A DNA stretch of 64,000 nucleotides from a virus (IMGVR_UViG_3300029571_000007:19007-83006), one strand, 5' to 3'; counted from the first letter of the stretch, positions 3,921 to 63,342 are shown. The notes: generated by a model not told the origin, from the sequence alone. A program made the numbers and translations.

Positions 3921-4997
3921 TTATACCTCCTCTTCAGCTTTCTGACCAAAGATTTTATCAAATAATGCTTCTGAATCAGTATCTTCATCATACTCAGGCT
4001 TTTTGACAGTATATTTAGAAATGAACTTCTCATAAGTAGAAGAAAATGCATTTTTCAATCCCATCATTTTAGAGAGATGCCCCTTAAAGAATACATCAAT
4101 TAAGAGTCCAATTTTATCAGGATCTTTAAATTCACCTTCTGGTTCTGGAATTGGTTTTTCTTGTTCCCATTTATCAATAAGCTGCCCAAATGTAAGATTA
4201 TCAGTTAATTCAGATGCAGTTTTCTGATTAGGTTTGATATTTAAACTTCCTAGCAGATTCTGTAAAGTAGCATCTAAATCTTTTGTATCCTTGCCATTTT
4301 TCTGAGCATTATCTATTTCAAGTTCTTTACAACATACTCGTTTAAATAAAAGTTCCTGAGATTTATTTTCACAAGGATAACGTGTCGTCCAGTCTTGGTA
4401 TTCCGTCTCAAGATACATAAGTTCTTCATTATTATAGTTATTTCCAAAACGTTTCTTAGCAGACTTGAGAGTTTTTTGAACAATTTTCGTATTTGTTTCT
4501 GGATTATTATCTATATCATCAATAGAAAATTCAGAATCTTTATAAGAAGTGTTATTGTACTGTGGAAGAGAAGCTACCATTACAATAAGATTTTGAACAG
4601 CCGTTCCACGAACTTTTTCACCAACACCTTCATTAATAGCTTGTAACTGTGCGTTATAATCACTTTCGCTAAATTTCCAATCAAGCTGTCTAAAAGTGTT
4701 AATTGTTTTTTCTCTATTGTCTGTTCTAATGCCAGTTTTAGGATCTACGTCAGTACACAAATCTAAAATACAAGCCTTACATGCAAAATGCTCAAATCCG
4801 CTTTTACTTTTGTTAGATTTATAAAAGTTTCCATTACCTTTAGTTGATTTCCATTTTCCACAATGAGGACAATAGATATAATCCAAATCTAGTAAATGGT
4901 TGTAGTCAATGGCTAAATCATGATACGCACCTTTTACATTATTTACTGTTAACTTTTTGACCTCATCATCAGTTTTGGCTTGTCTTAAATTAGCCAT
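3921..4997 (-). CDS. Zinc-ribbon protein upstream of terL (possible terminase small subunit / DNA-binding protein)
   Basis: ORF track 3921..5060; likely start MANLRQ at 4997 with AAGGTGA SD; CPHCGK..CKAC zinc ribbon; synteny with terL. Confidence 0.35.
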   Translation of the reverse strand: MANLRQAKTDDEVKKLTVNNVKGAYHDLAIDYNHLLDLDYIYCPHCGKWKSTKGNGNFYKSNKSKSGFEHFACKACILDLCTDVDPKTGIRTDNREKTINTFRQLDWKFSESDYNAQLQAINEGVGEKVRGTAVQNLIVMVASLPQYNNTSYKDSEFSIDDIDNNPETNTKIVQKTLKSAKKRFGNNYNNEELMYLETEYQDWTTRYPCENKSQELLFKRVCCKELEIDNAQKNGKDTKDLDATLQNLLGSLNIKPNQKTASELTDNLTFGQLIDKWEQEKPIPEPEGEFKDPDKIGLLIDVFFKGHLSKMMGLKNAFSSTYEKFISKYTVKKPEYDEDTDSEALFDKIFGQKAEEEV

Positions 4998-5269: not shown

Positions 5270-5357
5270 CGTAGTATATAGGACTTGAACCTATGCACCG
5301 AATAAACGATGACCTCTGATTAGCAATCAGGTGTAATACCAACTCTGCCAATACTAC
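5270..5357 (-). tRNA. tRNA-Ser (anticodon GCT), type II
   Basis: Acceptor GTAGTAT/ATACTAC, anticodon loop TTGCTAA, T-arm ATAGG-TTCAAGT-CCTAT, long variable arm; 5 nt from previous tRNA. Confidence 0.65.
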
Positions 5358-5446
5358 ATAATAAAAGAGTCACCTCATGAAGCGACTCTCTGTTACTATA
5401 CAAAAAATGTATAGCCTCGATGTCCATTTAAGTATCAGCTATTTAA

Positions 5447-5519
5447 TGATCTGTAGGAGATTCGGACTCCTGTTGCCGCCGTGAAAGGGCGATGTCCTAG
5501 ACCGCTAGACGAACAGACC
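5447..5519 (-). tRNA. tRNA-Glu (anticodon TTC)
   Basis: Closely resembles canonical bacterial tRNA-Glu (GTCTAGCGGTCTAGGAC..CCCTTTCACGGCGG..AGGAGTCCGAATCTCCT); acceptor GGTCTGT/ACAGATC. Confidence 0.85.
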
Positions 5520-5526
5520 TTGTAGG

Positions 5527-5554
5527 GTGGAAGAGTACCACCCATTATTTTTAC
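5527..5554 (+). terminator. Hairpin GGGTGG-AAGAGTA-CCACCC followed by ATTATTTTT (terminator-like on plus strand only)
   Basis: Seen in sequence; T-run is on plus-strand side, so it would stop antisense/rightward transcription, not the leftward genes. Confidence 0.3.
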
Positions 5555-6027
5555 AGAATAACTTCTGTTTCACCTTCAAACTTAGTATTTAAAGCACGAA
5601 TCTCAGCAAGTTTTTTACCAATTTCTTCCTGAATCTTAGTAGCGAAAAGTTCAACCTTTGCCTTACCAATCTTTTCGACACTATCAAAAGGCGCTTTAAC
5701 TTCTGATTCTGGAATCTTTGTAACATCTACAGAGAATGTAATATGAAGATTTTCATCTACAACAAATGACTGGTTAATAATATCTTTTAACTCAACAGAA
5801 ATAATAGTTGAATCATCAACTTCACTATCAGTTGTAACTGGATCTCCATTAGAATCAGCTTTCATATTAGATTTAAAGGATATCTTAGAATATTCGATTG
5901 TTCTAACAAAATTATGCAACATATCTTTTTCAGTAGCAGCATCGGTATCTGATGTACCTAATTCTGCGACAGAAATATCTACACTAATAACGTTTTCATC
6001 AATAGTTTTACTAATATTTAATTTCAT
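5551..6027 (-). CDS. Hypothetical phage protein (158 aa, acidic)
   Basis: ORF track; overlaps upstream gene by 4 nt (ATGA), translational coupling. Confidence 0.6.
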   Translation of the reverse strand: MKLNISKTIDENVISVDISVAELGTSDTDAATEKDMLHNFVRTIEYSKISFKSNMKADSNGDPVTTDSEVDDSTIISVELKDIINQSFVVDENLHITFSVDVTKIPESEVKAPFDSVEKIGKAKVELFATKIQEEIGKKLAEIRALNTKFEGETEVIL

Positions 6028-6320
6028 GAATTTGTACCCTCGCTTTCGTTTGCAATTACTTGTTTATATCCGTCTCTAATAGCCATAAATAAATCACGCA
6101 ATACTTCTTTATCAATAGAGCAATCTAAATTTGACGTATCAAACTGTGGATCACTTACTGAAAAATCTAATGTTCCGTCATTCCGTGGCACGAACAAAAT
6201 TTCCACGTTATTGTTCAAGAGTAAAGTAATAGAATCTATTTTTTCACCATTGTTGGATGTAACTTTACGAACCTGTCCAACTTTTAATGGCTCTTGCTCA
6301 ATAATCAATCTACTTGCCAT
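6024..6320 (-). CDS. Hypothetical phage protein (98 aa)
   Basis: ORF track; SD-like AAGGAG upstream of ATG at 6320. Confidence 0.55.
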   Translation of the reverse strand: MASRLIIEQEPLKVGQVRKVTSNNGEKIDSITLLLNNNVEILFVPRNDGTLDFSVSDPQFDTSNLDCSIDKEVLRDLFMAIRDGYKQVIANESEGTNS

Positions 6321-6369
6321 AATACATACTCCTTTCTTTTATTTTTCGTTTTCCTTTTAATCATTGAAT

Positions 6370-6441
6370 TGCGGAAGCAGGACTCGAACCTGCATACTCT
6401 TGGTTATGAGCCAAGTGAGCTTCCATTGCTCGTCATTCCGC
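6370..6441 (-). tRNA. tRNA with anticodon CAT (Met or lysidine-Ile), atypical
   Basis: Perfect anticodon arm CTTGG-CTCATAA-CCAAG; T-arm GCAGG-TTCGAGT-CCTGC; D-stem GAGC/GCTC; but only 6 clean acceptor bp and a 3-nt linker before the D-stem, so possibly unusual or a pseudogene. Confidence 0.55.
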
Positions 6442-7277
6442 TATGATAATCAGCATAAAGCACTAACTAGCTGATATTGGACTGTACACATCCAGTTTAT
6501 AAATTAGACACACTAGGTATCCATGCTTTTCAAAATCACTTTAATCAGATTTACTCGCTAACTAACGCACGAGAAGGAGATTACTACCTGTGTCACCCAA
6601 AATATATTGCACTTATATAGTGACACTCCATATTTATCTGTCTTTCCAGATGTCAGACCGCCCAGTAGTCATTCGCTATTGTCTATCTCAAAAATTCAGA
6701 AAAGAAACTAGCGATAATTTCATTTCATATAAAAGCCTAATAGACATTGGTTTTTAATATTTAGACCACAAGCTCGAAAGACACTGTAGTACAAACTTGA
6801 ATTTAATGGTTCTCATTAACGCAGAGAAGCACGATCACTTCTATGGTTGATATTGACCGTTTTAGGACTTACAATGCTATATGAATAGTAAATGCCAAAA
6901 TATGTTAATCGTCTACTAAGGCAAGACCTCTCCATAACACCGCCAATAAGCAGTAGCAGTGGGAAGTTTTAGACCATTCCAAAGGTCAATAATTTCGCAA
7001 ACCGACCTTTATATTTATGTCACATATCGGTCAGTGACAGCTCACTTGTAAAAATCTATCAACGGATTGATAGACCGCCCTCACTTCTTTTGGATGTGAG
7101 CAGCTTATTTAACTTATCTATGATGGGCGGTGTATCCATCATCTCAGATACTCCGAAGAGTGTGTAGAGAACCATTTTCTACCTATAGATAAGTTGTTGT
7201 ATTTATTTATTCTTTTGTTTTAAGAATGCATATTTTTGAATTTGTCAAGGGTTAGATGAAAGCTTCATCGGGATTGT

Positions 7278-8312
7278 CTACAAATCAGAGAGTGATTTTT
7301 GTTCTACTTGTTTAATTTCTCCATCTGCAAAATATTTTGCGAATTGCTCATCTGCATCAATGTCCTTGTACACTGAAACCATATCAAGGGAACTCCAACC
7401 TACTAGCATTTGAATTACATCATCAGGAAGACCACTTCGAGAACAAGAAGTTGTAAAGAAGTGACGAAGACTGTGGAAATAAAAGTCTTCTCCTAAATGT
7501 TTGGTGAATGTATCAGCCCAACTGTCAAGAGTGCTTGAATCCATAGGTTCATCTATATATTCTCCATTTACTTTCTTTGGAAATAACCATTCTGATTCAA
7601 TTCCGTGTTCTTTTCTATAATTCATCCACAAATCAAAATATGGCTTAAACGGTTTTGCAAGTGTATACACCACTAACATTTTTCCACGAGATCCTCTTCC
7701 TTTTGTTTGGATTTTTTCAGGTGTCTTATATAAAGAACCATATATAATATTTTCGTCATCAAAATAAGACACTTTGAATCGTGGTAATTCACTCTTACGT
7801 CTACCGCTAAATGCAGCTAATGCTAAAATACAAGCCTTGTCATACTTGCCTTTTTCAACCCAATAATCAAGCATTCCCTGTACTTGCTCATCAGATAATA
7901 CAGTTTTAGTAAATACTTTCTCATTTGCAGGATTTTCAATTTTGCGTATAATTGGTTTAAAATTTTCATACTCATCATCCAATATAGCTTCTACATAATT
8001 TGAAAGCGATGAGAGAGTAGATTTTACTCTACGCATTCTAGCTGGCGACCATTTATATTCAGTAAGGCAAAAACTCTGATAACGAGCAATATCCCTCTTA
8101 GATAAATCAATAAAGAATTTGTTGTCACAATGCTTAAGTAGATAAACCCAAAAAATAAAAAGGTCACGCCTATACGCATTAATTGTATTCGGAGATCTAT
8201 CCACTGAACGAAGATAATCCAAAAAGTCATTTCCTAATTCTATATTTTCTTTATTACACTGAGTCAATAACTCATCGGTAACAATATTATTGTGTTGTAT
8301 TTTTCTACCCAT
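7278..8312 (-). CDS. int: Tyrosine-type site-specific recombinase / integrase
   Basis: 344 aa; C-terminal catalytic signature HSLRHFFTT...VGWSSLDMVSVYKD (R..HxxR..Y); N-terminal SAM-like domain. Confidence 0.8.
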   Translation of the reverse strand: MGRKIQHNNIVTDELLTQCNKENIELGNDFLDYLRSVDRSPNTINAYRRDLFIFWVYLLKHCDNKFFIDLSKRDIARYQSFCLTEYKWSPARMRRVKSTLSSLSNYVEAILDDEYENFKPIIRKIENPANEKVFTKTVLSDEQVQGMLDYWVEKGKYDKACILALAAFSGRRKSELPRFKVSYFDDENIIYGSLYKTPEKIQTKGRGSRGKMLVVYTLAKPFKPYFDLWMNYRKEHGIESEWLFPKKVNGEYIDEPMDSSTLDSWADTFTKHLGEDFYFHSLRHFFTTSCSRSGLPDDVIQMLVGWSSLDMVSVYKDIDADEQFAKYFADGEIKQVEQKSLSDL

Positions 8313-8341
8313 AAAATCTCACTTCCTTTCAAACAAAAAGA

Positions 8342-8383
8342 AGCAGTAGTATCATTAACTAACCGCTTCTTGTCGCATTTTTA
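8342..8383 (-). terminator. Rho-independent terminator between tRNA-Tyr and integrase (minus strand)
   Basis: Minus-strand hairpin AAGAAGCGGT..ACTGCTTCTT followed by TTTGTTTG. Confidence 0.4.
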
Positions 8384-8477
8384 TATATTCATCATAAATC
8401 CCATAATCAGCTATGCCACTAATCATGAGAACATATATTTATTCTCTGTTTCCATTCACAGAAAACATTAAATTAGT

Positions 8478-8556
8478 GGGTAGGGTTGGACTCGAACCAA
8501 CGAAGCCGAAGCGCCTGATTTACAGTCAGGTGTAATTGCCGCTATACGACCTACCC
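8478..8556 (-). tRNA. tRNA-Tyr (anticodon GTA), long variable arm
   Basis: Acceptor GGGTAGG/CCTACCC, anticodon arm CCTGA-CTGTAAA-TCAGG, T-arm GTTGG-TTCGAGT-CCAAC; coordinates +/-2. Confidence 0.75.
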
Positions 8557-8599
8557 ATACAAAAAGAGCGTGCAACATACGCCACACACTCCAAATAAT

Positions 8600-9196
8600 C
8601 TAAAATCCAAAAGCCTTTAACATCTTCTGAATATCTTCATGACTTAACTCATTGCTAGAGTAGTAAGAATAACTCATATAAGAGTCGCCATCTGATCTAC
8701 TAGCAGTAAATCCGTGAGTATTTCCATCTTCGTCTTCAGAAGTATGTAAATAAGTTTCATCATGCGCAGGACAGTTTTCACAATCACCATCGCAATCATC
8801 ATATTCATTGCCAATTCCTACTTCATATACCTCATCAGCTTCAATCTTTGGAATAATCTTGGAATTACAATCATCAAAGATGTATACAACATCGGCTTCA
8901 ATAAAGATGTATCCATTATCTCTCTTAACTGGTTCGCACCAGATTTCATCATCTAATAAGCTAATAACGAAAGCATCGTCATACCCATCCCATTCTGGAT
9001 TACCAAACTTATCAATAAATGCAATACCGTATCCAATTCCAATAAGTTCACGAATAATCTCTTTTGCATCTTCATATTTAGCAACAACGTCTATTGAGTT
9101 GTATTTGTCATCAGATTTTATTCTGTCGTATGTATTTGAAACAACACAAGCAAAATCTTCATAGTCTTCAAAATGTAATGTTTTTATAATAATCAC
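8600..9196 (-). CDS. Hypothetical acidic protein (198 aa)
   Basis: ORF track; strand-consistent; opposite-strand ORFs 8762..8956 and 8808..9164 judged spurious. Confidence 0.6.
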   Translation of the reverse strand: MIIIKTLHFEDYEDFACVVSNTYDRIKSDDKYNSIDVVAKYEDAKEIIRELIGIGYGIAFIDKFGNPEWDGYDDAFVISLLDDEIWCEPVKRDNGYIFIEADVVYIFDDCNSKIIPKIEADEVYEVGIGNEYDDCDGDCENCPAHDETYLHTSEDEDGNTHGFTASRSDGDSYMSYSYYSSNELSHEDIQKMLKAFGF

Positions 9197-9207
9197 AACC
9201 TTTCAAA

Positions 9208-9492
9208 TTAAGCGTTCTTTACGGCATCTTTAAGTGCCTTACCTGCTTTAAACTTAGGTGCTTTTGAAGCTTCTATGTGAAGTGACTCACCTGTAAGTGG
9301 GTTTCTACCTTCTCTAGCAGCTCTTTCAACTACTTCAAATGTACCAAAACCAACTAACTGAACCTTGCCACCTGCTATAAGTTCATCAGTTATTGATTTT
9401 ATTACACCATCAACAATAGTAGTTAAATCCTTCTTTGATACATTTATATCAATATTTTCCTGTGTCTTTGCAACTAATTCTGTCTTATTCAT
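9208..9492 (-). CDS. HU/IHF-family histone-like DNA-binding protein
   Basis: 94 aa; GFGTFEVVERAAREGRNPLTGESLHIEASKAPKFKAGKALKDAV matches HU-family signature arm. Confidence 0.85.
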   Translation of the reverse strand: MNKTELVAKTQENIDINVSKKDLTTIVDGVIKSITDELIAGGKVQLVGFGTFEVVERAAREGRNPLTGESLHIEASKAPKFKAGKALKDAVKNA

Positions 9493-9600
9493 AAAAAAAA
9501 TCTCCTTTTAATCTATAATGTTTTTGCACTTTTAATATAATAAATGCTGATTTAATAAAAGAGGGTAGTAGTCAATACGATCTACTCCCTCAAAAAAATC

Positions 9601-10656
9601 TTATTCAACCCAAAGCTGAACCTTATCAATATATCTACCAAAACAACCAGCATATCCGTCCTGTCCATTTACAGTTTGATCATCTATCTGAACAGGGTAA
9701 TATTCGTCCATACCCTGTGGCGATACCTGTATATATAGACACTTGTATTCATAACCATCAGGTGTATAGAATACTGCTTTTAATGCGTCAATAGGTGTTC
9801 TACCGTTACCTGCGTAACCATTTTCGTCATCATTAATGTCATAGCCATCAACTTCTGGAAGCCAATCGCCGTTAAGTAAGTGAACCTGATATCTTACATA
9901 ACCTTCACTAACACCAATGGCAATACCTGTAATTGCCTGATCATCACTAGCACCAGCCCAATCATCTCTATCATGAACTTCATCCCACCAACGATTATTT
10001 GACTTAGCCCTATAATAAACATCAACATGACCTAAATCATTAGTTCTACCACCTGTAGTTTCATTATTATCCGAACTATCATTGTCAGAACAATCTTCAC
10101 TTGAATCTTCTGATACTACTTCGCCTGTTAAGGCTTCGACTATAGCATTCGCACAGGCTTCAGCATCCCATCTGTTAGCATCGTCTCTATCATCCACGAA
10201 GCAACATTCAATTAAGATAGCAGGGGCTTTTGTGTTTCTAAGAACATAAAGTCCTGAATTGGTTTTAAATCCTCTGTTCCTAATATTAAGTTTTTCTGAA
10301 ATTGCCTCACAAATCTTCGAACCAATTTCTTCTGTTCCAGTGTCATATCCGTAAACTTCTGTACCACCAGTAGAATCATCGCCTTCGTAATCATCTCTAC
10401 CAGAGTTAAGATGTATAGATATATCTAAATCAACATTATGTGAATTACATTTAGCAACAATCGCTGCTAAACAACCATTCTGTGACGTGTTTTCATCACA
10501 CGTACAATCATAAACTGTATGTCCAAGTGCTTCTAACTTTGCAATTACAGCATTCTTGACGATTCTGTCTTCAACAGACTCCTGTAAAATACCAACTGCA
10601 CCATAAGCACCCTGATCCTGTGGACAGTGACCTGCATGTACATTATATGTAGCCAT
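9601..10656 (-). CDS. Endolysin: N-acetylmuramoyl-L-alanine amidase (amidase_3-like) with C-terminal wall-binding region
   Basis: N-terminal HAGHCPQDQGA...SIHLNSG...LIECCFVDD resembles amidase_3; 351 aa; lysis-module position upstream of packaging genes. Confidence 0.75.
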   Translation of the reverse strand: MATYNVHAGHCPQDQGAYGAVGILQESVEDRIVKNAVIAKLEALGHTVYDCTCDENTSQNGCLAAIVAKCNSHNVDLDISIHLNSGRDDYEGDDSTGGTEVYGYDTGTEEIGSKICEAISEKLNIRNRGFKTNSGLYVLRNTKAPAILIECCFVDDRDDANRWDAEACANAIVEALTGEVVSEDSSEDCSDNDSSDNNETTGGRTNDLGHVDVYYRAKSNNRWWDEVHDRDDWAGASDDQAITGIAIGVSEGYVRYQVHLLNGDWLPEVDGYDINDDENGYAGNGRTPIDALKAVFYTPDGYEYKCLYIQVSPQGMDEYYPVQIDDQTVNGQDGYAGCFGRYIDKVQLWVE

Positions 10657-10733
10657 TTTATATTCCTCCTATACAAAATAAATAAAAATAAAAGAGGGTA
10701 GTATAAAACTATCCTCATAAGAACAAAATATAA

Positions 10734-11969
10734 TTAACTAAGCTGAATATCTTTTATCATTTCAACTTCGTTATCTTTTAAAATTGCTATTGTTTGAGAT
10801 GCTACACTACTGCAATAAAAATTTTTGGAAAAATCATTGAATCCGCTTAAGCAGCCTGTAGATATAGCATATCTACCATGATTTTCTGACTGAATGGAAA
10901 AATTGTGGAGATGTCCACTAAAGATTAAATCATAGAACTGATTATCACTAGAAATAATTTTTGCAAGATTATATCTATCATTTTTATATTTATCACCATG
11001 AATAAATTTACAAGATAAACCACAAACAGTAATATTTATCTCAGAATCATTATAATTTGTATCTAATATAGAAATGCGTTCACAGCCACTTACATCAACC
11101 AAATCTTTAATATGTTCAGTAATAAGCACATTTGCGTTGTCGCCCTCATAATTCTTTTTCTTGTCACCTGACATACGATCATGATTTCCAGCAATACCAC
11201 CAAATACAACATTGCAATCTTCAGCTAAAGCGACTAATAATCTATATATTAGTTTAGTAGCCTTATGTATCTGCATAGATTGTAAAAATTCACAATTATG
11301 TGCTTGTGTTTCTCTCATATATGAATTCTCGATCATATCACCTGTTGATATAACCAGAACCTGACGGATATTATATAATTCAATATACTTCTTACATTCA
11401 GAAATATATTTATCTATTCTTTCATTAGCAATTTCCCAATTAAAATTATTACCATTACAATTGTTAATTATATAGCCAATATGCCAATCAGTAATATGAC
11501 ATATCATAGTGTAATCAGATTCTTCTTCAACAGAAGAGTACATATATGTAGGAATTTCCATTGAGAAATTATTATCTTTCATATATTGTTTTAATTCATC
11601 AGCAACAGTAATGCAAGGAACTAAATCTCGTTTAAGTTTATTAAGTTTCAATCTATCATTATGTATTTGCTGTTTAACAATATATTGTTCACCTAGTACT
11701 TCTTTAGCATCATCAAGAGTACTACTTTTTTCTGTTATGTTTTTAGCTTTTAAATATTCTCTAACAAAATAATTGCCAAATATGGTCTGACTAGCCTTTC
11801 TAACGCTATCATAATGACATTTTATATCATATTTATCTACAATTTCTTTCCAATCTATATCTGAAATACCAGACATTTTATTCGAAATTTCTTGTAAAAC
11901 CTGTTCATAAGTTGATGGGGTTAGCCCATATTTTTTTAATTCTTCTTCGAAATTATAAATATAGTTCAC
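10734..11969 (-). CDS. Calcineurin-like metallophosphoesterase
   Basis: Motifs ITDWHIG (DxH), TGDMIEN (GD), GNHD (GNHD/E); 411 aa. Confidence 0.6.
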   Translation of the reverse strand: MNYIYNFEEELKKYGLTPSTYEQVLQEISNKMSGISDIDWKEIVDKYDIKCHYDSVRKASQTIFGNYFVREYLKAKNITEKSSTLDDAKEVLGEQYIVKQQIHNDRLKLNKLKRDLVPCITVADELKQYMKDNNFSMEIPTYMYSSVEEESDYTMICHITDWHIGYIINNCNGNNFNWEIANERIDKYISECKKYIELYNIRQVLVISTGDMIENSYMRETQAHNCEFLQSMQIHKATKLIYRLLVALAEDCNVVFGGIAGNHDRMSGDKKKNYEGDNANVLITEHIKDLVDVSGCERISILDTNYNDSEINITVCGLSCKFIHGDKYKNDRYNLAKIISSDNQFYDLIFSGHLHNFSIQSENHGRYAISTGCLSGFNDFSKNFYCSSVASQTIAILKDNEVEMIKDIQLS

Positions 11970-11976
11970 CTACTCT

Positions 11977-12183
11977 CTATTCTTCATTAGATTCAACAGG
12001 TTCATCGAGTTCACTTTCCTCTTTTACCTTCACATTTATTTCAACACTACCACCATTAAATACTGATAGAAGAGTAGCAAGTTTCTTTTCTCCACCATCT
12101 ACTTCAACAGTCATATTATCTGTGTCAATGATACCTGCAATCTTCATTGCGGTTGTCTCGGTACGTTTATAAACAAAATTCAT
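11977..12183 (-). CDS. Hypothetical protein (68 aa)
   Basis: ORF track; 4-nt overlap with upstream gene. Confidence 0.5.
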   Translation of the reverse strand: MNFVYKRTETTAMKIAGIIDTDNMTVEVDGGEKKLATLLSVFNGGSVEINVKVKEESELDEPVESNEE

Positions 12184-13100
12184 AAATTTAGCTCCTTTTT
12201 TAATATTTCTTCTATATTTTCATAATCCCAATACCAAATTTCCAACAATTGAATATTATGTTTTTTGGCATACTTACGTTTTCGCATATCATGTTCTTGT
12301 TGGATTTGATATTTCTTTTTACTTTGTATTCTTGCTTTGCCGTCATGGAATTCACCTTGATATTCAATTAAAAGATTGTATTGAGGCAAATAAAAATCAT
12401 ATGATAATAAGCCGTTATTAACACCTAACAAATTGTCATAATTCTGTTGTGGTATATAATCTATATTGTTATTATAAAGCAATTGTCTAATTTTTTGTTC
12501 GCCTTTTGATTCATTACAAAATGGGCATCTTTGACCACGCAAAAAATTATTTGCAATCATTTTAAAAGAATTATTACATTTTTTATGTAGAAATAGAATT
12601 TTATTAGAAGATTTTGTATATTCCGACAAAACTTTGTAATCTTCTCCATACGGACAAGTATTTACTTTTTCAATAAATTCTTCAGTTGTATAATGATATG
12701 TTTTTTTACATACAGGACAACCATGCCCATGTAATATACTTGAAGCGATTGGACTCCATTTATATCCACATATTCTACAATGAACATCTATTGGATTTAA
12801 CGCACCTGTATATGTGCCATCTACTATTATATCTTCGTTATCAAATTCTCTTTTAAATTGAGCATCAGTTTTTCCTCTTGCTTGTCTTATTGCACAAGGT
12901 TTATGAATGCGTCCCATTAGTAAATATGATGGAGTGGTTTCAAAAGTTTGTCCACATATTTTACACATACATAGTATTTTATTTTTTGAACCAGTATAAG
13001 ACCCTAATATTTCCACTGGCATATTTAATTTTGAATATTCTTCAATAAATTCTTCATGTGTTTTCTTTTTAGGCATTTTGTAACATCTCCTTCGTAACAT
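12180..13100 (-). CDS. Multi-zinc-ribbon protein with C-terminal endonuclease-like (DUF559/PD-(D/E)xK-like) domain; possible homing endonuclease
   Basis: Four CxxC pairs; C-terminal YDFYLPQYNLLIEYQGEFHDG resembles restriction-endonuclease-like fold proteins. Confidence 0.4.
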   Translation of the reverse strand: MLRRRCYKMPKKKTHEEFIEEYSKLNMPVEILGSYTGSKNKILCMCKICGQTFETTPSYLLMGRIHKPCAIRQARGKTDAQFKREFDNEDIIVDGTYTGALNPIDVHCRICGYKWSPIASSILHGHGCPVCKKTYHYTTEEFIEKVNTCPYGEDYKVLSEYTKSSNKILFLHKKCNNSFKMIANNFLRGQRCPFCNESKGEQKIRQLLYNNNIDYIPQQNYDNLLGVNNGLLSYDFYLPQYNLLIEYQGEFHDGKARIQSKKKYQIQQEHDMRKRKYAKKHNIQLLEIWYWDYENIEEILKKELNL

Positions 13101-13103
13101 AAT

Positions 13104-13319
13104 TTAAAAAATTAGATATGTCTCTTTATCTATCCTCCAATTTCCTAAATTTTTATTAAGCAACTCATTTTTCTCAAATAAAAATACCAAAAATCCTTTT
13201 GACTTCTGGTCTGTATCTATTCTTTTAAGTTGTGAGCCATTGTCAATAAGGTAATTTGCTAATCGTTTGCTTTTGCATACAAACAAAATATTTTCCTCCA
13301 TAAAATTAAAAATTCCCAC
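13104..13319 (-). CDS. Hypothetical protein (71 aa)
   Basis: ORF track. Confidence 0.45.
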   Translation of the reverse strand: MGIFNFMEENILFVCKSKRLANYLIDNGSQLKRIDTDQKSKGFLVFLFEKNELLNKNLGNWRIDKETYLIF

Positions 13320-13626
13320 CAGAACGCTTTCTGCCAGGATTGTAATACATTTGTTTACTTTTATTCTGCTTTACTTTAATATACTCACGAATCTTCCTAA
13401 TATAATTTTCATCATAGCTTAATCTAGCATGTGATTCTAAATAATAACACCCACAACGAGTAGGAATTTTATTTGATAATACATTGTCTATAAGCTTATA
13501 CGATGGATTAAGATTTGAAAGATGAGTATGTTTTTCTGTGTCATCTTTTCTGCATATACGATAGCCGTTTTCAGTCTTGTCAATATAAAAATCTTTATAT
13601 TCTATTCGATTTTTCATAGCCAGCAC
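13306..13626 (-). CDS. Hypothetical protein (106 aa), Cys/His-containing
   Basis: ORF track; a further ~55-aa GTG-started ORF lies at ~13628..13795 (-). Confidence 0.5.
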   Translation of the reverse strand: MLAMKNRIEYKDFYIDKTENGYRICRKDDTEKHTHLSNLNPSYKLIDNVLSNKIPTRCGCYYLESHARLSYDENYIRKIREYIKVKQNKSKQMYYNPGRKRSGGNF

Positions 13627-13827
13627 CTACTTGACGAATTTATCTTCGATGTAACGCTTTCCACTACAAGTCTTGTAATAACCTATGTGTTCGCCTCTAC
13701 GATCTACATATCCTCGTCTTGTGTTTCTGATTACACCTTCAGATAATAATTTTTCAATTTCACTTTTAGAAATCTGTTTAATAATTTTCACATCCTTTGA
13801 TTTATTTCCTACAAAGTAGGATAGTAG

Positions 13828-13902
13828 TTGGAAATGTAGGATTTGAACCTGCGACCTCTTGATCCCAAATCAAGCGTTCTAGCCAAGCTGAACTAATTCC
13901 CA
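13828..13902 (-). tRNA. tRNA-Pro (anticodon TGG)
   Basis: Full cloverleaf: U8, D-stem GTTC/GAAC, anticodon arm CTTGA-TTTGGGA-TCAAG with U33 and G37, T-loop TTCAAAT; U1-A72 first pair. Confidence 0.75.
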
Positions 13903-14791
13903 AAATAAAAAATCCCATACCGAAGTATGAGATCCTTACTTAATATGAGCTGAGATATTTGACTCAATACACTAACATCTACTGTGGTTGGACACAGTTT
14001 ATCACACAAGCGATTAACTTGTAGTTAGCAACAACACCGATTTTGACATAATCGGCAAACTCTTACCACAAAGTATTATAGATTTTCTTTCTGCACATTC
14101 TTCCTTGCGAGATTCATAGGTTGCAGCCTATTAGAGTTGTACGTACTTGTACTTTCTCATATAGTACCTTGCGAGTGCTATATGTCACCATATTACAGAT
14201 GAATAAGTTGTTTGTCTCTTTGCGGTTATACACACTTTTGCTTGTTCTTTTCTATCAGTAAATCAAATAATATTTTTATTATTAAGGAATTCTGTTCATT
14301 CACCAAAAGTATGTACTTACAAATGGACGATGAGGTGTATATTTGACCATCAGTACCTTTTGAGTACCACCCAATCATCACCATCCTGCTCGGATTGCGA
14401 TCTCCTTGCTTTTTGATTCCATCCCTGTTTTTCAACTTAAGAGATATTATCAAAATCCTATCAACAGTTATACTTGCGGTATTCCCGTCAATAGTACACA
14501 AATCATCCCCACATTTCTGTGTTAATACAGTGCCTATTTCGAGACACCCACCAAATCAATTTGTTTAAGAATCTCATGCAATGCAATTGATTACATAAAC
14601 TCATAAATAGTCATTATCAGTTGACCTCTGACCTTAGATATGGCGTAGATTTTATGTGTTTTCCGTTAAACTGTATTATACAGTCGCAGCCTTATAATAC
14701 GATAAGAACCACTTTATACGTGTCGCCACGCTTATTTTAAGATTCAACATCCTCCGATCCGAAACCGACCAGTCCTATAAAAATAGGATAA

Positions 14792-14863
14792 CTCCCACAA
14801 CAGGATTCGAACCTGTAACTTACGAATTAACAGTTCGTTGCTCTACCATTGAACTATATGGGA
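14792..14863 (-). tRNA. tRNA-Asn (anticodon GTT)
   Basis: D-arm TAGTTCAATGGTAGAGCA, anticodon arm ACGAA-CTGTTAA-TTCGT, T-arm ACAGG-TTCGAAT-CCTGT; U1-A72. Confidence 0.8.
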
Positions 14864-60644: not shown

Positions 60645-61023
60645 AATACAGGAGAATAATAAAATGGATAAAGATACAAATAAGCGAAATGAACTTAGAA
60701 AACAGTTACAAGCCTTATCAAAGGAGCGAATTATTGAATTATATATTCACTTATTCATGAATTTTGCTAATGATAAGGATGAAACCGATTGGGAAGATAT
60801 TAAATAGAAGAGAACAGATTGCACAAGTTTACCGACCTAAACAATCTGCTCAGAGAATAAAATATAGGATAAACTATATATGTTCTATTATAACAAATCT
60901 ATTTGGCTAATTCAAGCCAGTTTATCCTATAACAATTAGTCTTTTGACTACGGGCTATTTTGAGTCCGAATAGTGAGGATTATATCACTCACTGAAAAGT
61001 ATGTAATTTATATGTAATTTGAA

Positions 61024-61186
61024 GTTTTGGAAGTATATGAAATTACATACTAACAAAATATCTGGCAACAGAGAGGAGATGTTTCAGTTGTTTTGGAAGT
61101 ATAGTTACATACTAGCAAAATTACATAATATGTATCGACACAAGTTATAAATTTTTAGAAGTATATAAAATTACATCTCATTAAAA
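61024..61186 (+). CRISPR. Mini array C: 3 repeats (36, 32, 36 nt; degenerate) with 30- and 29-nt spacers, preceded by leader with anti-repeat
   Basis: R1 GTTTTGGAAGTATATGAAATTACATACTAACAAAAT 61024-61059; S1 61060-61089; R2 61090-61121 (4-nt deletion); S2 61122-61150; R3 ATTTTTAGAAGTATATAAAATTACATCTCATTAAAA 61151-61186. Confidence 0.55.
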
Positions 61187-61286
61187 GAATATATAAATGA
61201 AATTAAAATCAATTCTATTGCGGTAGATTTTACTGCCGAATCGTGAGTGCAATGCAACTCATGAAAATCTATGTAATAAGTTTGAG

Positions 61287-61454
61287 GTTTTAGATACATA
61301 TAAAATTACATAGGTATAAAACAAACCTGTTGAAATTGTTGAAGATATAGAAGTTTTAGATACATATAAAATTACATAGGTATAAAACACTTGCGTTGTT
61401 GTACTTGTAAGCTGTTTAATTTTAGAGATATTTAAAATTACAAAAAATATAAAA
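61287..61454 (+). CRISPR. Mini array A: 3 repeats of 36 nt (third degenerate, overlapping nuclease SD) with two 30-nt spacers
   Basis: R1 GTTTTAGATACATATAAAATTACATAGGTATAAAAC 61287-61322; S1 61323-61352; R2 identical 61353-61388; S2 61389-61418; R3 ATTTTAGAGATATTTAAAATTACAAAAAATATAAAA 61419-61454. Confidence 0.75.
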
Positions 61455-61469
61455 GGAGATTTACAAATT

Positions 61470-62858
61470 ATGGGAAACAATAGAATGACAATTTGTAGAA
61501 AAATTAAATTATTTCCAGTAGGAGATAAGGATGAAATCAATAGAGTATATAACTTTATTAGAAATGGTCAGTATGCTCAATATCAGGCTTGTAACCTGCT
61601 TATGGGACAGCTTATGAGTGAATATTACAAATATAATCGTGATATTAAGAATGAAGAATTTAAGGCAAGACAGAAAGAAATAATGACAAACTCTAATATC
61701 ATATTAAAAGATATTGATTTTGCAACTGGTGTAGACACTCCATCAGCCGTTACTCAGAAAGTCAAGCAGGATTTCAGCACAGCTTTAAAGAATGGATTGG
61801 CTAAAGGTGAACGAACTGTAACAAATTATAAGAGAACTAATCCACTTATTACAAGAGGCAGAAACTTAACTTTTTATCATGAGTATGAAACATATCATGA
61901 TTTTTTAGACAAGATTAATGATTCTGATTTGGCGGTATATGTCAAGTGGGTTAATAAAATTGTATTTAAGGTTGTGTTTGGCAATCCGCATAGGTCATTA
62001 GAGTTAAGATCTGTTATTCAGAATATATTAGAAGAGAATTATAAAGTGCAAGGAAGTAGCATTGAAATTGATGGTAAGTCAATCATTTTAAATCTCTCAA
62101 TATCTATTCCAAAACAACTTAGAGAGCTGGATGAAAATATAGTAGTAGGTGTTGATTTAGGCATTGCAGTTCCTGCTATGTGTGCTTTAAACAATAATCT
62201 TTACGAGAGATTGGCAATTGGAAATGCAGATGATTTTCTAAGAATAAGAACTAAAATGCAAGCTCAGAGAAAAAGATTACAGAAGTCATTACGAAATACT
62301 TCTGGTGGTCATGGTAGAGCAAAGAAACTGAAAGCATTAGAAAGATTGCAGAAAGCAGAAGTACATTTTGTTGAAACATATTGTCATATGATAAGTAAAA
62401 GAGTCGTTGATTTTGCTTTAAAACATAATGCTAAATACATAAATATTGAGAATTTAACAGGATATGATACAAGTGATTTTATCCTGAGAAATTGGAGTTA
62501 TTATAAACTTCAAGATTATATTACATATAAAGCAGCTAAATACGGAATAGAAGTAAGAAAAATCAATCCTTGTTATACATCACAGATTTGTAGTGTATGT
62601 GGTAATTGGGAGTTTGGTCAGAGAAAGTCACAGTCAGTATTTGAATGTGCAAATGAGAATTGTGATAGTCATAAAAAATATGAAAAAACTGGTTTTAATG
62701 CAGACTTCAATGCTGCCAGAAACATTGCAATGTCAACTCTTTGGATGGGAAGTGGACAAGTTACTGAAAAGAGTAAACAGGAAGCAAGAGAATATTATGA
62801 TATCTCTGAAAAATATGAACAAAGTAAGAATGGTTCAGAGAATAATAAAGTAGCTTAA
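61470..62858 (+). CDS. TnpB/Cas12-like RNA-guided nuclease candidate (462 aa), RuvC D-E-D plus zinc finger; compact type V-like effector
   Basis: N-terminal RKIKLFPVGDKDEINRVYNF (TnpB-like WED start); RuvC-I VVGVDLGIAVPAM; RuvC-II KYINIENL; zinc finger CYTSQICSVCGN...FECANENCDSH; RuvC-III FNADFNAARNIA. Confidence 0.8.
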   Translation: MGNNRMTICRKIKLFPVGDKDEINRVYNFIRNGQYAQYQACNLLMGQLMSEYYKYNRDIKNEEFKARQKEIMTNSNIILKDIDFATGVDTPSAVTQKVKQDFSTALKNGLAKGERTVTNYKRTNPLITRGRNLTFYHEYETYHDFLDKINDSDLAVYVKWVNKIVFKVVFGNPHRSLELRSVIQNILEENYKVQGSSIEIDGKSIILNLSISIPKQLRELDENIVVGVDLGIAVPAMCALNNNLYERLAIGNADDFLRIRTKMQAQRKRLQKSLRNTSGGHGRAKKLKALERLQKAEVHFVETYCHMISKRVVDFALKHNAKYINIENLTGYDTSDFILRNWSYYKLQDYITYKAAKYGIEVRKINPCYTSQICSVCGNWEFGQRKSQSVFECANENCDSHKKYEKTGFNADFNAARNIAMSTLWMGSGQVTEKSKQEAREYYDISEKYEQSKNGSENNKVA

Positions 62859-62968
62859 GTGCTACTTAATCAATCGTAAGATTGCAGGTGATTTTGCACC
62901 TGAATGGCGAGGTTGTTAATTAATGGCACTCGTTAGAATCTATGTTAATAGTATCTGTGTGATTTGAG

Positions 62969-63070
62969 GTTTTAGATATGTTTAATTTAACATAGATACA
63001 AAACTACTTTAACCAACAATATACTATGTTCTTTGTTTTAGATATGTTTAATTTAACATAGATACAAAAC
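62969..63070 (+). CRISPR. Mini array B: 2 identical 36-nt repeats with one 30-nt spacer, downstream of nuclease gene, preceded by homologous leader
   Basis: R1 GTTTTAGATATGTTTAATTTAACATAGATACAAAAC 62969-63004; S1 63005-63034; R2 identical 63035-63070. Confidence 0.7.
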
Positions 63071-63342
63071 ACGGTTAAGACAACATTTTACTCAGTAAAA
63101 TGATTATTCAATATATACTACAGAAATGTTGAGATTATCAAGCTAATGGAAGAAAAATATAATACGAAAAGGAGAATAGTTAAATGTCAGTATTTTTTAT
63201 ATTAGTTTTAATAGGATTAATAATTTTATGGTTTCTACTGTCACCTTTATTTGAAAAAATTGGTAAGTTTGTTATCAATGTTATAAATAAAGTATTTTCG
63301 ACAGATGAAATAAATAATAACGAAGAAAAGGAGACAAAAGAA

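Follow-up and report, generated by a model that had tools for sequence, protein, structure and literature searches.

Organization of the locus

The window, meaning the whole 64,000-nucleotide stretch of viral DNA that was analysed (IMGVR_UViG_3300029571_000007:19007-83006), contains one cas12f1-like gene accompanied by three modules, C, A and B. All three lie on the + strand, where a first-pass annotation made from the DNA had placed them (Table 1). Two are upstream of cas12f, and in each of the three copies a tracrRNA-like scaffold abuts the first repeat of a short array. Each array consists of 36-nt repeats, beginning GTTTTAGA and ending AAAAC, and of 30-nt spacers located 3' of the repeat. 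Array C includes one repeat with a 4-nt internal deletion (61090-61121) and ends in a degenerate repeat (61152-61187). The last repeat of array A (61419-61454) is also degenerate and ends at the GGAG ribosome-binding site of cas12f, while array B continues after its last repeat into trailing sequence (63071-63100). Searches of Rfam at gathering thresholds returned no RNA family in 60900-63100. In the rest of the window Rfam identified six tRNAs and one skipping-rope RNA only.

Table 1 Features of the cas12f1 locus, in window coordinates
Feature	Position	Strand	Details
Module C tracrRNA-like scaffold	60937..61016	+	covariance-model match 60949-61059, 108 bits; fold z-score -5.4
Module C stem 0	60937-60950
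Module C stem 1	60951-60956 with 60963-60968
Module C stem-1 loop	60957-60962		pseudoknot bases 60958-60962
Module C stem 2	60971-60977 with 60988-60994
Module C anti-repeat	60998-61009		second pairing stretch reaches 61016
Module C leader end ATTTGAA	61017..61023	+	directly 5' of GTTT repeat start; read from sequence
Array C	61024..61187	+	repeats 61024-61059, 61090-61121, 61152-61187
Array C spacers			C1 61060-61089; C2 61122-61151
Module A tracrRNA-like scaffold	61210..61279	+	covariance-model match 61219-61322, 102 bits
Module A stem 0	61210-61220
Module A stem 1	61221-61226 with 61233-61238
Module A stem-1 loop	61227-61232		pseudoknot bases 61228-61232
Module A stem 2	61241-61247 with 61258-61264
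Module A anti-repeat	61267-61277
Module A leader end GTTTGAG	61280..61286	+	directly 5' of GTTT
Array A	61287..61454	+	repeats 61287-61322, 61353-61388, 61419-61454
Array A spacers			A1 61323-61352; A2 61389-61418
cas12f1-like gene	61470..62858	+	462 aa
Module B tracrRNA-like scaffold	62871..62961	+	covariance-model match 62883-63004, 97.8 bits
Module B stem 0	62871-62884
Module B stem 1	62885-62890 with 62897-62902
Module B stem-1 loop	62891-62896		pseudoknot bases 62892-62896
Module B stem 2	62905-62911 with 62929-62935
Module B anti-repeat	62938-62948		second pairing stretch 62951-62957
Module B leader end ATTTGAG	62962..62968	+	directly 5' of GTTT
Array B	62969..63100	+	repeats 62969-63004, 63035-63070; spacer B1 63005-63034

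The predicted nuclease

Cas12f1 effectors are small TnpB-like proteins (400-550 aa) that combine a RuvC domain with a zinc-finger (TNB) domain. The 462-aa protein matched the Pfam family Cas12f1-like_TNB (PF07282, 1.7e-15) and the NCBIfam family guided_TnpB (3.6e-47). Over nearly its full length it also aligned with CnCas12f1 (PDB 8hr5, E 7.8e-88) and RhCas12f1 (9nzp, E 1.8e-81); the best structural relatives in the PDB are named Cas12f1, not TranC, the transposon-CRISPR intermediates reported to use guide RNAs of both CRISPR and transposon origin. Alignment with CnCas12f1 identified the RuvC residues D229 (GVDLG), E327 (NIENL) and D412 (NADFNAARN), and the zinc-finger cysteines are present. 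Among 15 relatives E327 and D412 were invariant and D229 was at least 90% conserved. The predicted nuclease is an ordinary Cas12f1 homologue, and no other effector gene was found within 10 kb of this single cas12f gene. The carriers are temperate gut phages; the prophage is part of contigs of up to 0.2-1 Mb, and relatives are found in assemblies of Roseburia, Butyrivibrio and Clostridium. A tblastn search of GenBank phages returned only distant TnpB-like matches (<40% identity), no GenBank phage matched the whole locus, and no report of the Cas12f1 subtype from phages was found in the literature searched.

Pairing between leaders and repeats

The first-pass annotation had described, in each leader, a segment complementary to part of the repeat that follows. 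In each module the 45 nt preceding the first repeat were scanned for their longest stretch of exact complementarity to that repeat, and its length was compared with 5000 dinucleotide shuffles. Module C has a 12-nt run (AGTATGTAATTT, 60998-61009, with AAATTACATACT, 61040-61051) that was reached in 1 of 5000 shuffles, and module B an 11-nt run (ATCTATGTTAA, 62938-62948, with TTAACATAGAT, 62987-62997) reached in 8 of 5000. The 9-nt run of module A (CTATGTAAT) was reached in 26 of 5000 shuffles, and the addition of one G-U and one A-U pair extends this helix to 11 pairs (61267-61277 with 61305-61315). The exact complementarity of each leader to its own repeat, 9-12 nt and rare in shuffles, was thus borne out. 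Anti-repeat and repeat are separated by 9-20 nt in the three modules. The sequence frame quoted around the anti-repeat proved approximate: TTTGA(A)G is found in all three leaders, whereas CACTC, which is the 3' arm of stem 2, reads AACTC in A, and GAAAA reads AGAAT in B.

The modules had also been said to differ in a co-varying manner, the leaders changing where the repeats change. In the three window modules 95.6% of paired cells were occupied by pairs, compared with 29-47% when partners were slid by 1-3 columns, and 11 of the 31 pairs changed on both sides. Four of these 11 belong to the anti-repeat:repeat helix (columns 57/114, 58/113, 64/107 and 66/105) and one to a pseudoknot between a loop and the repeat end that the annotation had missed. 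These differences are compensated on both sides within the window, and also across 134 distinct homologous modules (below).

Preference for the module's own repeat was partial. The longest exact run of each leader was with its own repeat rather than with the other two (12 nt against 10 and 5; 9 against 8 and 8; 11 against 6 and 6), but exclusive specificity did not hold. Leader C was predicted to pair with repeat A at -18.5 kcal/mol and with its own repeat at -17.4, and leader B with repeat A at -16.6 kcal/mol and with its own at -16.0. Since these energies overlap between modules, the modules are not orthogonal.

Scaffold structure and covariation

The scaffold consists, in order, of an optional 5' hairpin (stem 0), stem 1, a GAA(U) linker, stem 2 with a GAG...CUC core, and the 3' anti-repeat, whose partner is the 3' half of the 36-nt repeat. 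A 5-bp pseudoknot joins the stem-1 loop (UUUUR) to the five bases YAAAA, which stop one base short of the repeat's 3' end; this helix adjoins the spacer. In the guide RNAs of Cas12f and TnpB the pseudoknot likewise lies next to the guide. RNAfold gave the same fold for all three modules, and the minimum-free-energy structure contained the anti-repeat:repeat pairings in each; in the centroid structure they were present in C and A and absent in B.

A covariance model was built from 9 modules, with the pseudoknot left out. It returned 152 matches from 74 sources; every match is on the cas12f strand, and the window has exactly three. Pairs were counted over 134 distinct modules, which come from over 60 related loci. 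Across these rows 89.4% of paired cells were occupied by pairs, compared with 30-45% when partners were slid, and 28 of 31 pairs changed on both sides; none of 500 shuffles reached the observed values. The anti-repeat helix was kept at the homologous loci, with both-sided change in 13 of 13 pairs and 88% of cells paired. The pseudoknot changed on both sides in 5 of 5 pairs, with 86% of cells paired, and occurred as UUUUA/UAAAA, UUUUG/CAAAA, UUUCG/CGAAA, CUUUG/CAAAG and UUUCA/UGAAA. Compensatory change was found in every helix, the pseudoknot included. The many G-U pairs among the 134 rows fit an RNA read from the + strand.

The scaffold aligned with the tracrRNA of RhCas12f1, with a second clostridial tracrRNA (from the supplement of PMC10090079) and with an Anaerotignum locus (L032). 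Columns without variation in this alignment are located in stem 1, in both arms of stem 2 (GAG and ACUC), at the linker A and in the loop AUUU. The window scaffolds are shorter than the validated Cas12f tracrRNAs compared, and a stem 3 between stem 2 and the anti-repeat is absent from the three window modules, which have only 2-3 nt there. The leaders are putative Cas12f1-type tracrRNA genes. The proposal that the anti-repeat belongs to a folded scaffold RNA and forms a duplex with the repeat gains support from compensatory change both in the window and in the 134 modules.

Cassette layout in related loci

Loci with a covariance-model match have 1-6 cassettes each, with 1-5 repeats per cassette, and cassettes are found on both sides of cas12f. 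The spacers number roughly 240 in all. Two bacterial relatives of 45-57% identity (L027 and L032) have a single tracrRNA 140-180 nt upstream of a single array of 4 or 15 repeats. Fused single-guide forms were found in L030, in L031 and in module B of three phages (L004, L005 and L009). The downstream module of L030 and L065, like module B of those three phages, has no array and is made up of a scaffold, a short hairpin, the pseudoknot partner and one fixed guide. The flanks of this fixed-guide module B are identical to those of the full module B in phages of 95-100% identity, so that it looks like a deletion product. The fused single-guide forms look derived, and in the phages of 97% identity they appear to have come from the array-bearing state by deletion. 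Fusion of a tracrRNA with half a repeat, followed by duplication into omega-RNA-like arrays, has been described for a Cas12f1-derived clade (PMC10691335).

No terminator-like site was found between scaffold and repeat. Promoter scans of this AT-rich DNA gave no more sites than shuffled sequence, and the sequences preceding 124 distinct modules yielded no position-specific promoter motif.

Spacers and their targets

One small Mob_Pre plasmid (contigs L099, L100 and L102) is matched by five or six spacers of the clade, of which two overlap by 26 nt; in related phages they come from all three modules, A, B and C. The matches are 30/30, 29/30, 27/30, 27/30, 26/29 and 25/30, the first of which confirms the 30-nt spacer length. 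Spacer C1 of the window is among them, matching all three contigs at 27/30 positions next to a 5' TCCA. The 5' flanks of the protospacers (TCCA, TCCT, TCCA, TCTA, CCCA and ACCA) are mostly NCCA, lie on the side of the repeat's 3' end and resemble the CCCA/TCCA PAM used for RhCas12f1; the 3' flanks in these contigs have no common motif. The predicted function is in a conflict between mobile elements, a phage against a small mobilizable plasmid.

No target was found for the window spacers other than C1 in GenBank phages or, for A1, A2 and B1, in IMG/VR. The six window spacers had no match in GenBank phages; in exact IMG/VR scans A1 and B1 had no match, and A2 and s9 were found only in arrays of sister phages. 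An apparent protospacer for the sequence after the last module B repeat (in L013, L015 and L017) was rejected, because the match reflects contiguous homology that remains after a deletion of about 1.16 kb and not an acquired spacer.

Leader end and spacer acquisition

The leader end of module B, ATTTGAG, is exactly the leader-anchoring motif of type II-A group 1, of which A and C have one-base variants; each base is 70-87% conserved in the 134 modules. The motif has been described as essential for type II-A adaptation (PMC5382924). Among phages of 95-100% identity, trailer-end spacers are common and leader-end spacers differ. A1 is absent from two near-identical loci (L001 and L002) that have A2 in common with the window, and B1 is absent from the same two loci, where module B has a single repeat. 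One spacer was found twice in module A of L002 and also in module B of L018. Judged by their sequences the arrays have the marks of mature CRISPR arrays: spacers turn over next to the leader, the terminal repeats are degenerate, and real protospacers have a 5' PAM-like motif.

No cas1, cas2 or cas4 gene was found within 10 kb on either side in four contigs encoding the identical protein, no Cas1 domain in ten of the window's other ORFs of at least 280 aa, and no cas9 or csn2 in the 10-kb neighbourhood. The original Cas14a loci contain an adaptation module (cas1, cas2 and cas4). The greater Cas12f branch generally lacks adaptation genes (PMC10691335), and an adaptation module is therefore not defining for the wider group. 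The ATTTGAG/GTTT junction, the 36-nt repeats and 30-nt spacers, the leader-proximal turnover and the lack of cas1 and cas2 nearby together suggest that spacers are added by a host integrase, the least certain step of the mechanism proposed below. Type II-A acquisition selects a Cas9-type 3' PAM, and the lack of a common 3' motif in the protospacers counts against a borrowed type II-A integrase.

Proposed mechanism and alternatives

Very probably, each leader is a compact Cas12f1-type tracrRNA gene placed head-to-tail with a mini CRISPR array, whose guides load the phage Cas12f1. Guide RNAs from the three cassettes would all load the one protein encoded at 61470-62858. As there is no terminator between scaffold and repeat, the primary transcript would run scaffold-repeat-spacer-repeat-spacer, so that the newest spacer, being first in line, would arise as a natural single-guide RNA. 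Because modules pair with only partial specificity, a scaffold processed from the same cassette or from a sister cassette may serve the later repeats in trans. New spacers would be added by a host integrase at the ATTTGAG/GTTT junction. The guide RNA is of a known kind; its fused, repeated layout and its type II-A-like leader end are unusual.

A wider reading is offered tentatively, and we consider it rather doubtful as a whole. The tracrRNA gene would also be the CRISPR leader, the newest spacer would always be a natural single-guide RNA, a host type II-A integrase would fill a type V-F array, and small deletions would switch cassettes with exchangeable spacers to and from fixed-guide, omega-RNA-like units.

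According to the first-pass annotation the modules might represent an evolutionary intermediate between the omega-RNA of TnpB and the split tracrRNA:crRNA. On this view they would be a new omega-RNA-like class, or a primitive stage in which a single scaffold-plus-guide RNA is already iterated but has not yet separated into two genes. The physical continuity of the first repeat with the scaffold accords with this, as do the relatives that have a single fixed guide and no array (the downstream module of L030/L065 and module B of L004/L005/L009), and a published model of type V origin has tracrRNA and crRNA arise when a transposon RNA splits (Jin et al. 2025, as cited in PMC13565253). The idea was nevertheless not established, and we regard it as improbable: the nuclease is an ordinary Cas12f1 homologue that falls inside Cas12f1, among members with a separate tracrRNA, the scaffold is RhCas12f1-like, and in the bacterial relatives of 45-57% identity tracrRNA and array are separate, as is canonical. 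In L004/L005/L009 the module B with a fixed guide seems to be the product of a deletion, the arrays have a polarised spacer turnover and a leader motif that are typical of mature CRISPR arrays, and no transposase or transposon ends lie within 10 kb on either side. The reverse route, fusion with half a repeat and then duplication, is on record (PMC10691335).

It is very unlikely that the three cassettes are orthogonal guide systems with private arrays, possibly serving different effectors such as a host nuclease. Each leader has its longest exact run in common with its own repeat, and the ends of the repeats are type II-A-like; against this, duplex energies overlap between modules (leaders C and B with repeat A), one design of stem 1, stem 2 and pseudoknot is common to all three scaffolds, and there is one cas12f gene only, with no other effector within 10 kb. 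Spacers from A, B and C of related phages, moreover, match one plasmid with mostly NCCA-type 5' flanks.

Also very unlikely is that the complementarity acts at the DNA level, for example as a hairpin or cruciform for a spacer integrase or host factor. The inverted repeat does span the leader-repeat junction, the site of integration, and ATTTGAG, a DNA-level motif, sits between both arms. Against this, many pairs are G-U or U-G (at one stem-1 pair 37 UG and 20 GU were counted, at one anti-repeat pair 36 UG), and the opposite strand would have A-C mismatches in their place. The anti-repeat continues a scaffold homologous to a validated tracrRNA, and the stem-1 loop covaries with a repeat end about 90 nt away, as expected of a pseudoknot in RNA but not of a hairpin formed locally in DNA.

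Implications

If the leaders are compact tracrRNA genes, they bear on the design of Cas12f, the smallest widely used CRISPR nuclease, whose long guide RNA limits engineering. A natural scaffold of about 70-90 nt without stem 3 is a ready test of which guide elements are dispensable, and relatives that also lack the repeat:anti-repeat hairpin offer a further one. The fused, iterated cassettes suggest a way to balance tracrRNA with crRNA and to favour the newest spacer. A type II-A-like junction on a type V-F array provides a concrete lead on the spacer source of Cas12f systems without cas1 and cas2; were the type II-A integrase reading true, the system would be a cross-type chimera. If deletion switching occurs, the transition from tracrRNA:crRNA to a single RNA could be observed among phages of 95-100% identity. 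A temperate gut phage with a nuclease aimed at a small mobilizable plasmid would also be a case of phage-versus-plasmid conflict.

Comparison with known systems

The closest likeness is to type V-F1 Cas12f1 (9nzp, 8hr5), with which the locus has in common a homologous nuclease, tracrRNA stem 1, the GAA linker and stem 2 (GAG/CUC), a 3' anti-repeat whose partner is the 3' part of the repeat, a guide located 3' of its repeat and a C-rich 5' PAM (CCCA/TCCA). In RhCas12f1 the stem-1 loop is likewise complementary to the repeat end (AUUUA with UAAAU). The Rh and Cn tracrRNAs have a stem 3, however, whereas the window scaffolds are shorter and lack it, and the Rh repeat is 30 nt long compared with the 36-nt repeats, 30-nt spacers and ATTTGAG leader end of the window. 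The canonical Cas12f1 tracrRNA is a separate gene between cas12f and a single array; in the window it is fused to the array and present in three copies. The bacterial relatives L027 and L032 have the scaffold 140-180 nt upstream of one array, and the phage family has abutting scaffolds, 1-6 per locus.

In the omega-RNA-like arrays of PMC10691335, as here, the scaffold and repeat end form one unit that is duplicated for several targets, the 3' end of the fused scaffold keeps repeat-end sequence, and fully fused forms occur in the phage family too. The window units differ in keeping whole repeats and exchangeable spacers. The sigma-factor-linked clade of that study is inactivated and regulatory, whereas the window nuclease keeps its catalytic residues.

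A TnpB omega-RNA has a single scaffold and a single guide, comes from a transposon end, overlaps or follows the 3' end of tnpB and belongs to an IS200/IS605 or IS607 element. It resembles the window RNAs in its structured scaffold, pseudoknot next to the guide, 3' guide and nuclease superfamily (NCBIfam guided_TnpB). In contrast, the window locus has no transposon ends or transposase within 10 kb, and none of its scaffolds overlaps the gene's 3' end, two of the three being upstream. TnpB guides target the flank of their own element; those of the window are exchangeable array spacers against a foreign plasmid.

Type II-A arrays have the same ATTTGAG/GTTT junction, 36-nt repeats, 30-nt spacers and addition of new spacers at the leader end, but the window locus lacks cas9, csn2, cas1 and cas2, its partner is a Cas12f-type scaffold, and its protospacers have a 5' motif and no 3' motif. 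Virus-borne mini-CRISPR arrays and phage Cas12j, Cas12p and TranC9 likewise combine short arrays, no adaptation genes and the targeting of rival mobile elements. In contrast to these systems, the phage here brings both the effector, a Cas12f1, and a tracrRNA for every array.

Phage genome and nuclease gene

The window is a temperate-phage genome. A domain search of its ORFs identified an integrase and an amidase, and its RNA genes comprise six tRNAs and one skipping-rope RNA, located in its left part. Three cassettes (C, A and B) and one gene occupy positions 60937-63100, all on the plus strand. By sequence comparison, the 462-aa product of this gene is a Cas12f1 homologue, with matches to the Pfam Cas12f1-like TNB domain (1.7e-15) and the NCBIfam RNA-guided TnpB family (3.6e-47). 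Near full-length matches were obtained to two solved structures, 8hr5 (7.8e-88), which we take to be CnCas12f1, and 9nzp (1.8e-81). The latter is RhCas12f (PMC13186708). RuvC residues D229, E327 and D412 are all found in the ORF and conserved among relatives, and Cas12f genes 100% identical to that of the window are present in IMG/VR viral contigs.

Each cassette consists of approximately 75-100 nt of structured non-coding sequence, the leader, and immediately after it 36-nt repeats separated by 30-nt spacers. The degenerate third repeat of array A runs to the ribosome-binding site of cas12f. In array C, a 4-nt internal deletion in the second repeat, which reads GTATAG-TTACATAC instead of GTATATGAAATTACATAC, cuts its anti-repeat pairing to about 8 bp. 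Repeat A appears internally duplicated (TACATATAAAA, then TACATAGGTATAAAA), so that its 5' half gives a second, weaker site for the anti-repeat and loop; its ends (GTTTTA...TAAAAC) are mutually complementary.

Features of the window (window coordinates)
Feature	Position	Strand	Remarks
tRNA genes and skipping-rope RNA	5270-14863	-	six tRNA genes
Skipping-rope RNA	7114-7192	-	67 bits
Cassette C	60937-61187	+	three repeats, last degenerate
Leader end C	61017-61023	+	ATTTGAA, then GTTT
Spacer C1	61060-61089	+	
Array C second repeat	61090-61121	+	4-nt internal deletion
Spacer C2	61122-61151	+	trailer end
Cassette A	61210-61454	+	three repeats, last degenerate
Leader end A	61280-61286	+	GTTTGAG, then GTTT
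Repeat A	61287-61322	+	
Spacer A2	61389-61418	+	trailer end
cas12f ORF	61470-62858	+	462 aa
Cassette B	62871-63070	+	two repeats
Leader end B	62962-62968	+	ATTTGAG, then GTTT
Band_7 (SPFH) gene	from 63344		follows array B

In four related contigs (L092-L095), viewed over 10 kb on each side of an identical cas12f, the cassettes belong to an accessory island that also encodes a phage integrase, an HTH regulator, a PemK toxin, several DNA methyltransferases and, depending on the variant, SIR2, GmrSD-like and PARG-like genes. Which genes this island holds varies among phages that are otherwise near-identical. Three related loci (L013, L015 and L017, at about 4600) are without the ~1.16 kb present in a fourth (L014, 4603-5766), Band_7 gene included, and one end of this deletion is the exact end of the last repeat.

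The leaders are tracrRNA-like scaffolds predicted to pair with their repeats

The first-pass annotation had claimed that a segment of each leader is complementary to the repeat of its own module, and this was borne out in all three. The longest exact complementary runs were 12 nt in C, 9 nt in A (11 pairs with one G-U and one A-U added) and 11 nt in B, lengths matched by 1, 26 and 8 of 5000 dinucleotide-shuffled leaders, respectively. RNAfold placed the pairings in the minimum-free-energy structure of every module. Co-variation between the three modules was also seen as proposed: 11 pairs had changed on both sides, including four that belong to the anti-repeat:repeat helix. In these modules alone, 95.6% of pairing cells were paired, compared with 29-47% for slid partners. 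The leader frame that had been quoted is approximate: CACTC, the 3' arm of stem 2, reads AACTC in A, and GAAAA reads AGAAT in B.

The three modules share a common plan 5' of the anti-repeat: a small hairpin (stem 0), stem 1 (6 bp with an AUUUUR loop), a GAAU linker and stem 2 (core GAG/CUC). A stem 0 hairpin of at least 4 bp was found in 65 of 100 distinct upstream sequences. The window scaffold could be aligned with the RhCas12f1 tracrRNA and a second clostridial tracrRNA (both from the supplement of PMC10090079), as well as with the scaffold of a bacterial relative (L032). The columns that never vary lie within stem 1, the AUUU of the loop, the linker and both arms of stem 2. Stem 3 of the Rh tracrRNA has no equivalent in the window. 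A further pairing, missing from the first-pass annotation, joins the stem-1 loop pentamer to the five bases preceding the last repeat base (UUUUA/UAAAA in module A, UUUUG/CAAAA in B and C); its Rh counterpart pairs AUUUA with UAAAU. The pseudoknot of Cas12f and TnpB guide RNAs lies in the same place, adjoining the guide. Given the alignment to the RhCas12f1 tracrRNA and the compensatory changes, a tracrRNA-like scaffold pairing with the repeat was the correct reading, and the scaffold is of the known Cas12f1 tracrRNA kind.

The pairing is conserved across related loci

The window protein and a 15-member alignment were used to retrieve 91 loci from viral contigs and from Lachnospiraceae, Butyrivibrio, Roseburia, Clostridium, Anaerotignum and other assemblies. 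Nine modules, with the pseudoknot left out, were used to build a covariance model, which gave 152 matches in 74 sources, all on the cas12f strand. Loci with any match had 1-6, each followed by 1-5 repeats; the window has exactly three. On 134 distinct rows, 89.4% of cells were paired (30-45% for slid partners), 28 of 31 pairs had changed on both sides, values attained by 0 of 500 shuffles, and compensatory change was seen at 13/13 pairs of the anti-repeat:repeat helix, these nested-helix counts leaning toward structure because the alignment had been fitted to the model. The pseudoknot, being absent from the model, provides an independent test: on the same rows compensatory change occurred at 5/5 pairs, and 86% of cells were paired. 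The frequency of G-U pairs indicates that the RNA is read from the plus strand. The complementarity is therefore kept in homologous loci.

Other repeat classes occur in the same Cas12f1 family. Loci L056 (2725-2951) and L089 (2121-2553, 4194-5209) have 30-nt repeats, as does Rh, with ~36-nt spacers in arrays reaching 15 or more units, and repeats in L034 (7120-7464) are 28 nt. The scaffold anti-repeat and loop seem to track the repeat class adopted by the lineage.

Spacers match a mobilizable plasmid

Metagenomes were scanned with spacer s9, found in module A of locus L002 and module B of locus L018. Matches of 30/30 were obtained in three human-gut contigs of ~5.2-5.5 kb (L099, L100 and L102), which encode a Mob_Pre relaxase; one stretch of a 550-aa gene on this element resembles repA of small clostridial plasmids. 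Five more spacer sequences match the same element, two of the spacers overlapping, to give five or six in all.

Spacers matching the plasmid element
Spacer	Match	5' flank
s9	30/30	TCCA
Window C1	27/30, mismatches at PAM-distal positions 20, 24, 27	TCCA
L001 module A	27/30	TCTA
L010, after sole module-C repeat, overlapping L001 spacer	25/30	ACCA
L003 module C	26/29	CCCA
L013-L015 module B	29/30	TCCT

The matching spacers come from all three cassettes. NCCA predominates among the 5' flanks and resembles the CCCA/TCCA PAM employed with RhCas12f1, and no common 3'-flank motif was found among the plasmid protospacers. These matches confirm the direction of transcription and the repeat-then-spacer guide design, and show that the arrays serve a C-rich-PAM Cas12f. 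Judged from its spacers, the system looks like a phage-borne nuclease directed at a small mobilizable plasmid.

In a phage that is less closely related (L083, Cas12f 45% identical to that of the window), a spacer (4894-4923) matches the cas12f coding region of loci L073-L080 (about 3683-3754) at 28-29/30 in most members, suggesting phage-against-phage targeting of a rival's nuclease gene. The 5' flank at this target, TTTG, suggests a different PAM in that clade.

Leader ends and spacer turnover

Among the unpaired parts of the module, the seven bases that precede the first repeat are the best conserved, with the consensus A/T/T/T/G/A/G (70-87% per position) followed by GTTT. The 36-nt repeats start GTTTTAGA and end AAAAC, and the S. 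pyogenes type II-A repeat starts and ends alike. The leader ends of the window match the type II-A leader-anchoring motif: ATTTGAG/GTTT marks the leader-repeat junction of group-1 type II-A arrays and is described as essential for integrating spacers in S. thermophilus (PMC5382924). The 30-nt spacer length was confirmed by the 30/30 protospacer.

Trailer-end spacers C2 and A2 are common to phages with 95-100% identical Cas12f. Leader-end spacers vary among them; window spacers A1 and B1 are missing from L001 and L002, where other spacers occupy that position. No cas1, cas2 or cas4 was found within 10 kb on either side of cas12f, and no Cas1 domain in ten of the window's other ORFs of at least 280 aa. 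Such turnover, with no adaptation genes nearby, is characteristic of spacer acquisition that continues at the leader end of all three cassettes through machinery encoded elsewhere. Borrowing of a co-resident type I-B adaptation module has been proposed for V-F1 systems (bioRxiv 10.1101/2024.04.09.587696).

Spacer s9 (GTAAAAGGAAAGTGGTCTGATGCTGATCTT, 30 nt) occurs twice in tandem in L002 (2723-2818) and once in L018 (4536-4565), and spacers in L009 and L005-L008 derive from one target region on opposite strands with a 4-nt offset, suggesting repeated sampling of few protospacers. In type II-A acquisition the PAM is selected by Cas9. The lack of a shared 3' motif at the protospacers speaks against a simple type II-A route, unless spacers are filtered by selection once acquired; that these type V-F arrays use a type II-A integrase is offered as a hypothesis.

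Cassette layout and relation to known systems

Two bacterial relatives, L032 (Anaerotignum, 45% identity, 15 repeats) and L027 (Lachnospiraceae, 57% identity, 4 repeats), have the canonical layout, in which one array is preceded, at a distance of 140-180 nt, by one scaffold of the same design. In the phage clade, by contrast, the scaffold directly adjoins the first repeat, and iterated cassettes flank the gene on both sides. No terminator-like site was found between scaffold and repeat, so one transcript probably covers the scaffold and, at a minimum, the first repeat and its spacer. Such a transcript would provide the leader-proximal spacer with a natural single-guide RNA, and later repeats would need a scaffold in trans. 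The specificity of pairing between modules is only partial, making cross-service among cassettes plausible. In the literature searched, we found no report of phage cassettes fused and iterated in this way, of the minimal scaffold, of the leader junction resembling that of type II-A or of the plasmid targeting.

Fully fused, fixed-guide units also occur in the family: L030/L065 and L031 have a scaffold, short hairpin, pseudoknot partner and guide. In three phages with 97%-identical Cas12f (L004, L005 and L009), module B, located at 4414-4480 and the homologue of window 62883-63004, has lost the anti-repeat and most of the repeat. The 67-nt remnant comprises stem 1, stem 2, a short linker and ACAAAA and continues directly into the ribosome-binding site of the next gene; it is a fixed-guide, omega-RNA-like form without the anti-repeat:repeat hairpin. 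A separate deletion in L012 takes out the stem 2 3' arm and the anti-repeat.

The first-pass annotation had proposed an intermediate between omega-RNA and tracr:crRNA. To judge from its citation in PMC13565253, the TranC model has a transposon RNA split into tracrRNA and crRNA. Such an intermediate is not demonstrated here: the fused module B looks derived, since sisters with 95-100% protein identity and the same flanks keep the full module B, and the reverse route has been published for a Cas12f1-derived clade, where fusion of the tracrRNA with half a repeat is followed by duplication of the fused unit to form omega-RNA-like arrays (PMC10691335). The fused units of this family would follow the same trajectory, and the cassettes are best seen as a derived, plastic variant of the Cas12f1 system rather than a demonstrated ancestral intermediate.
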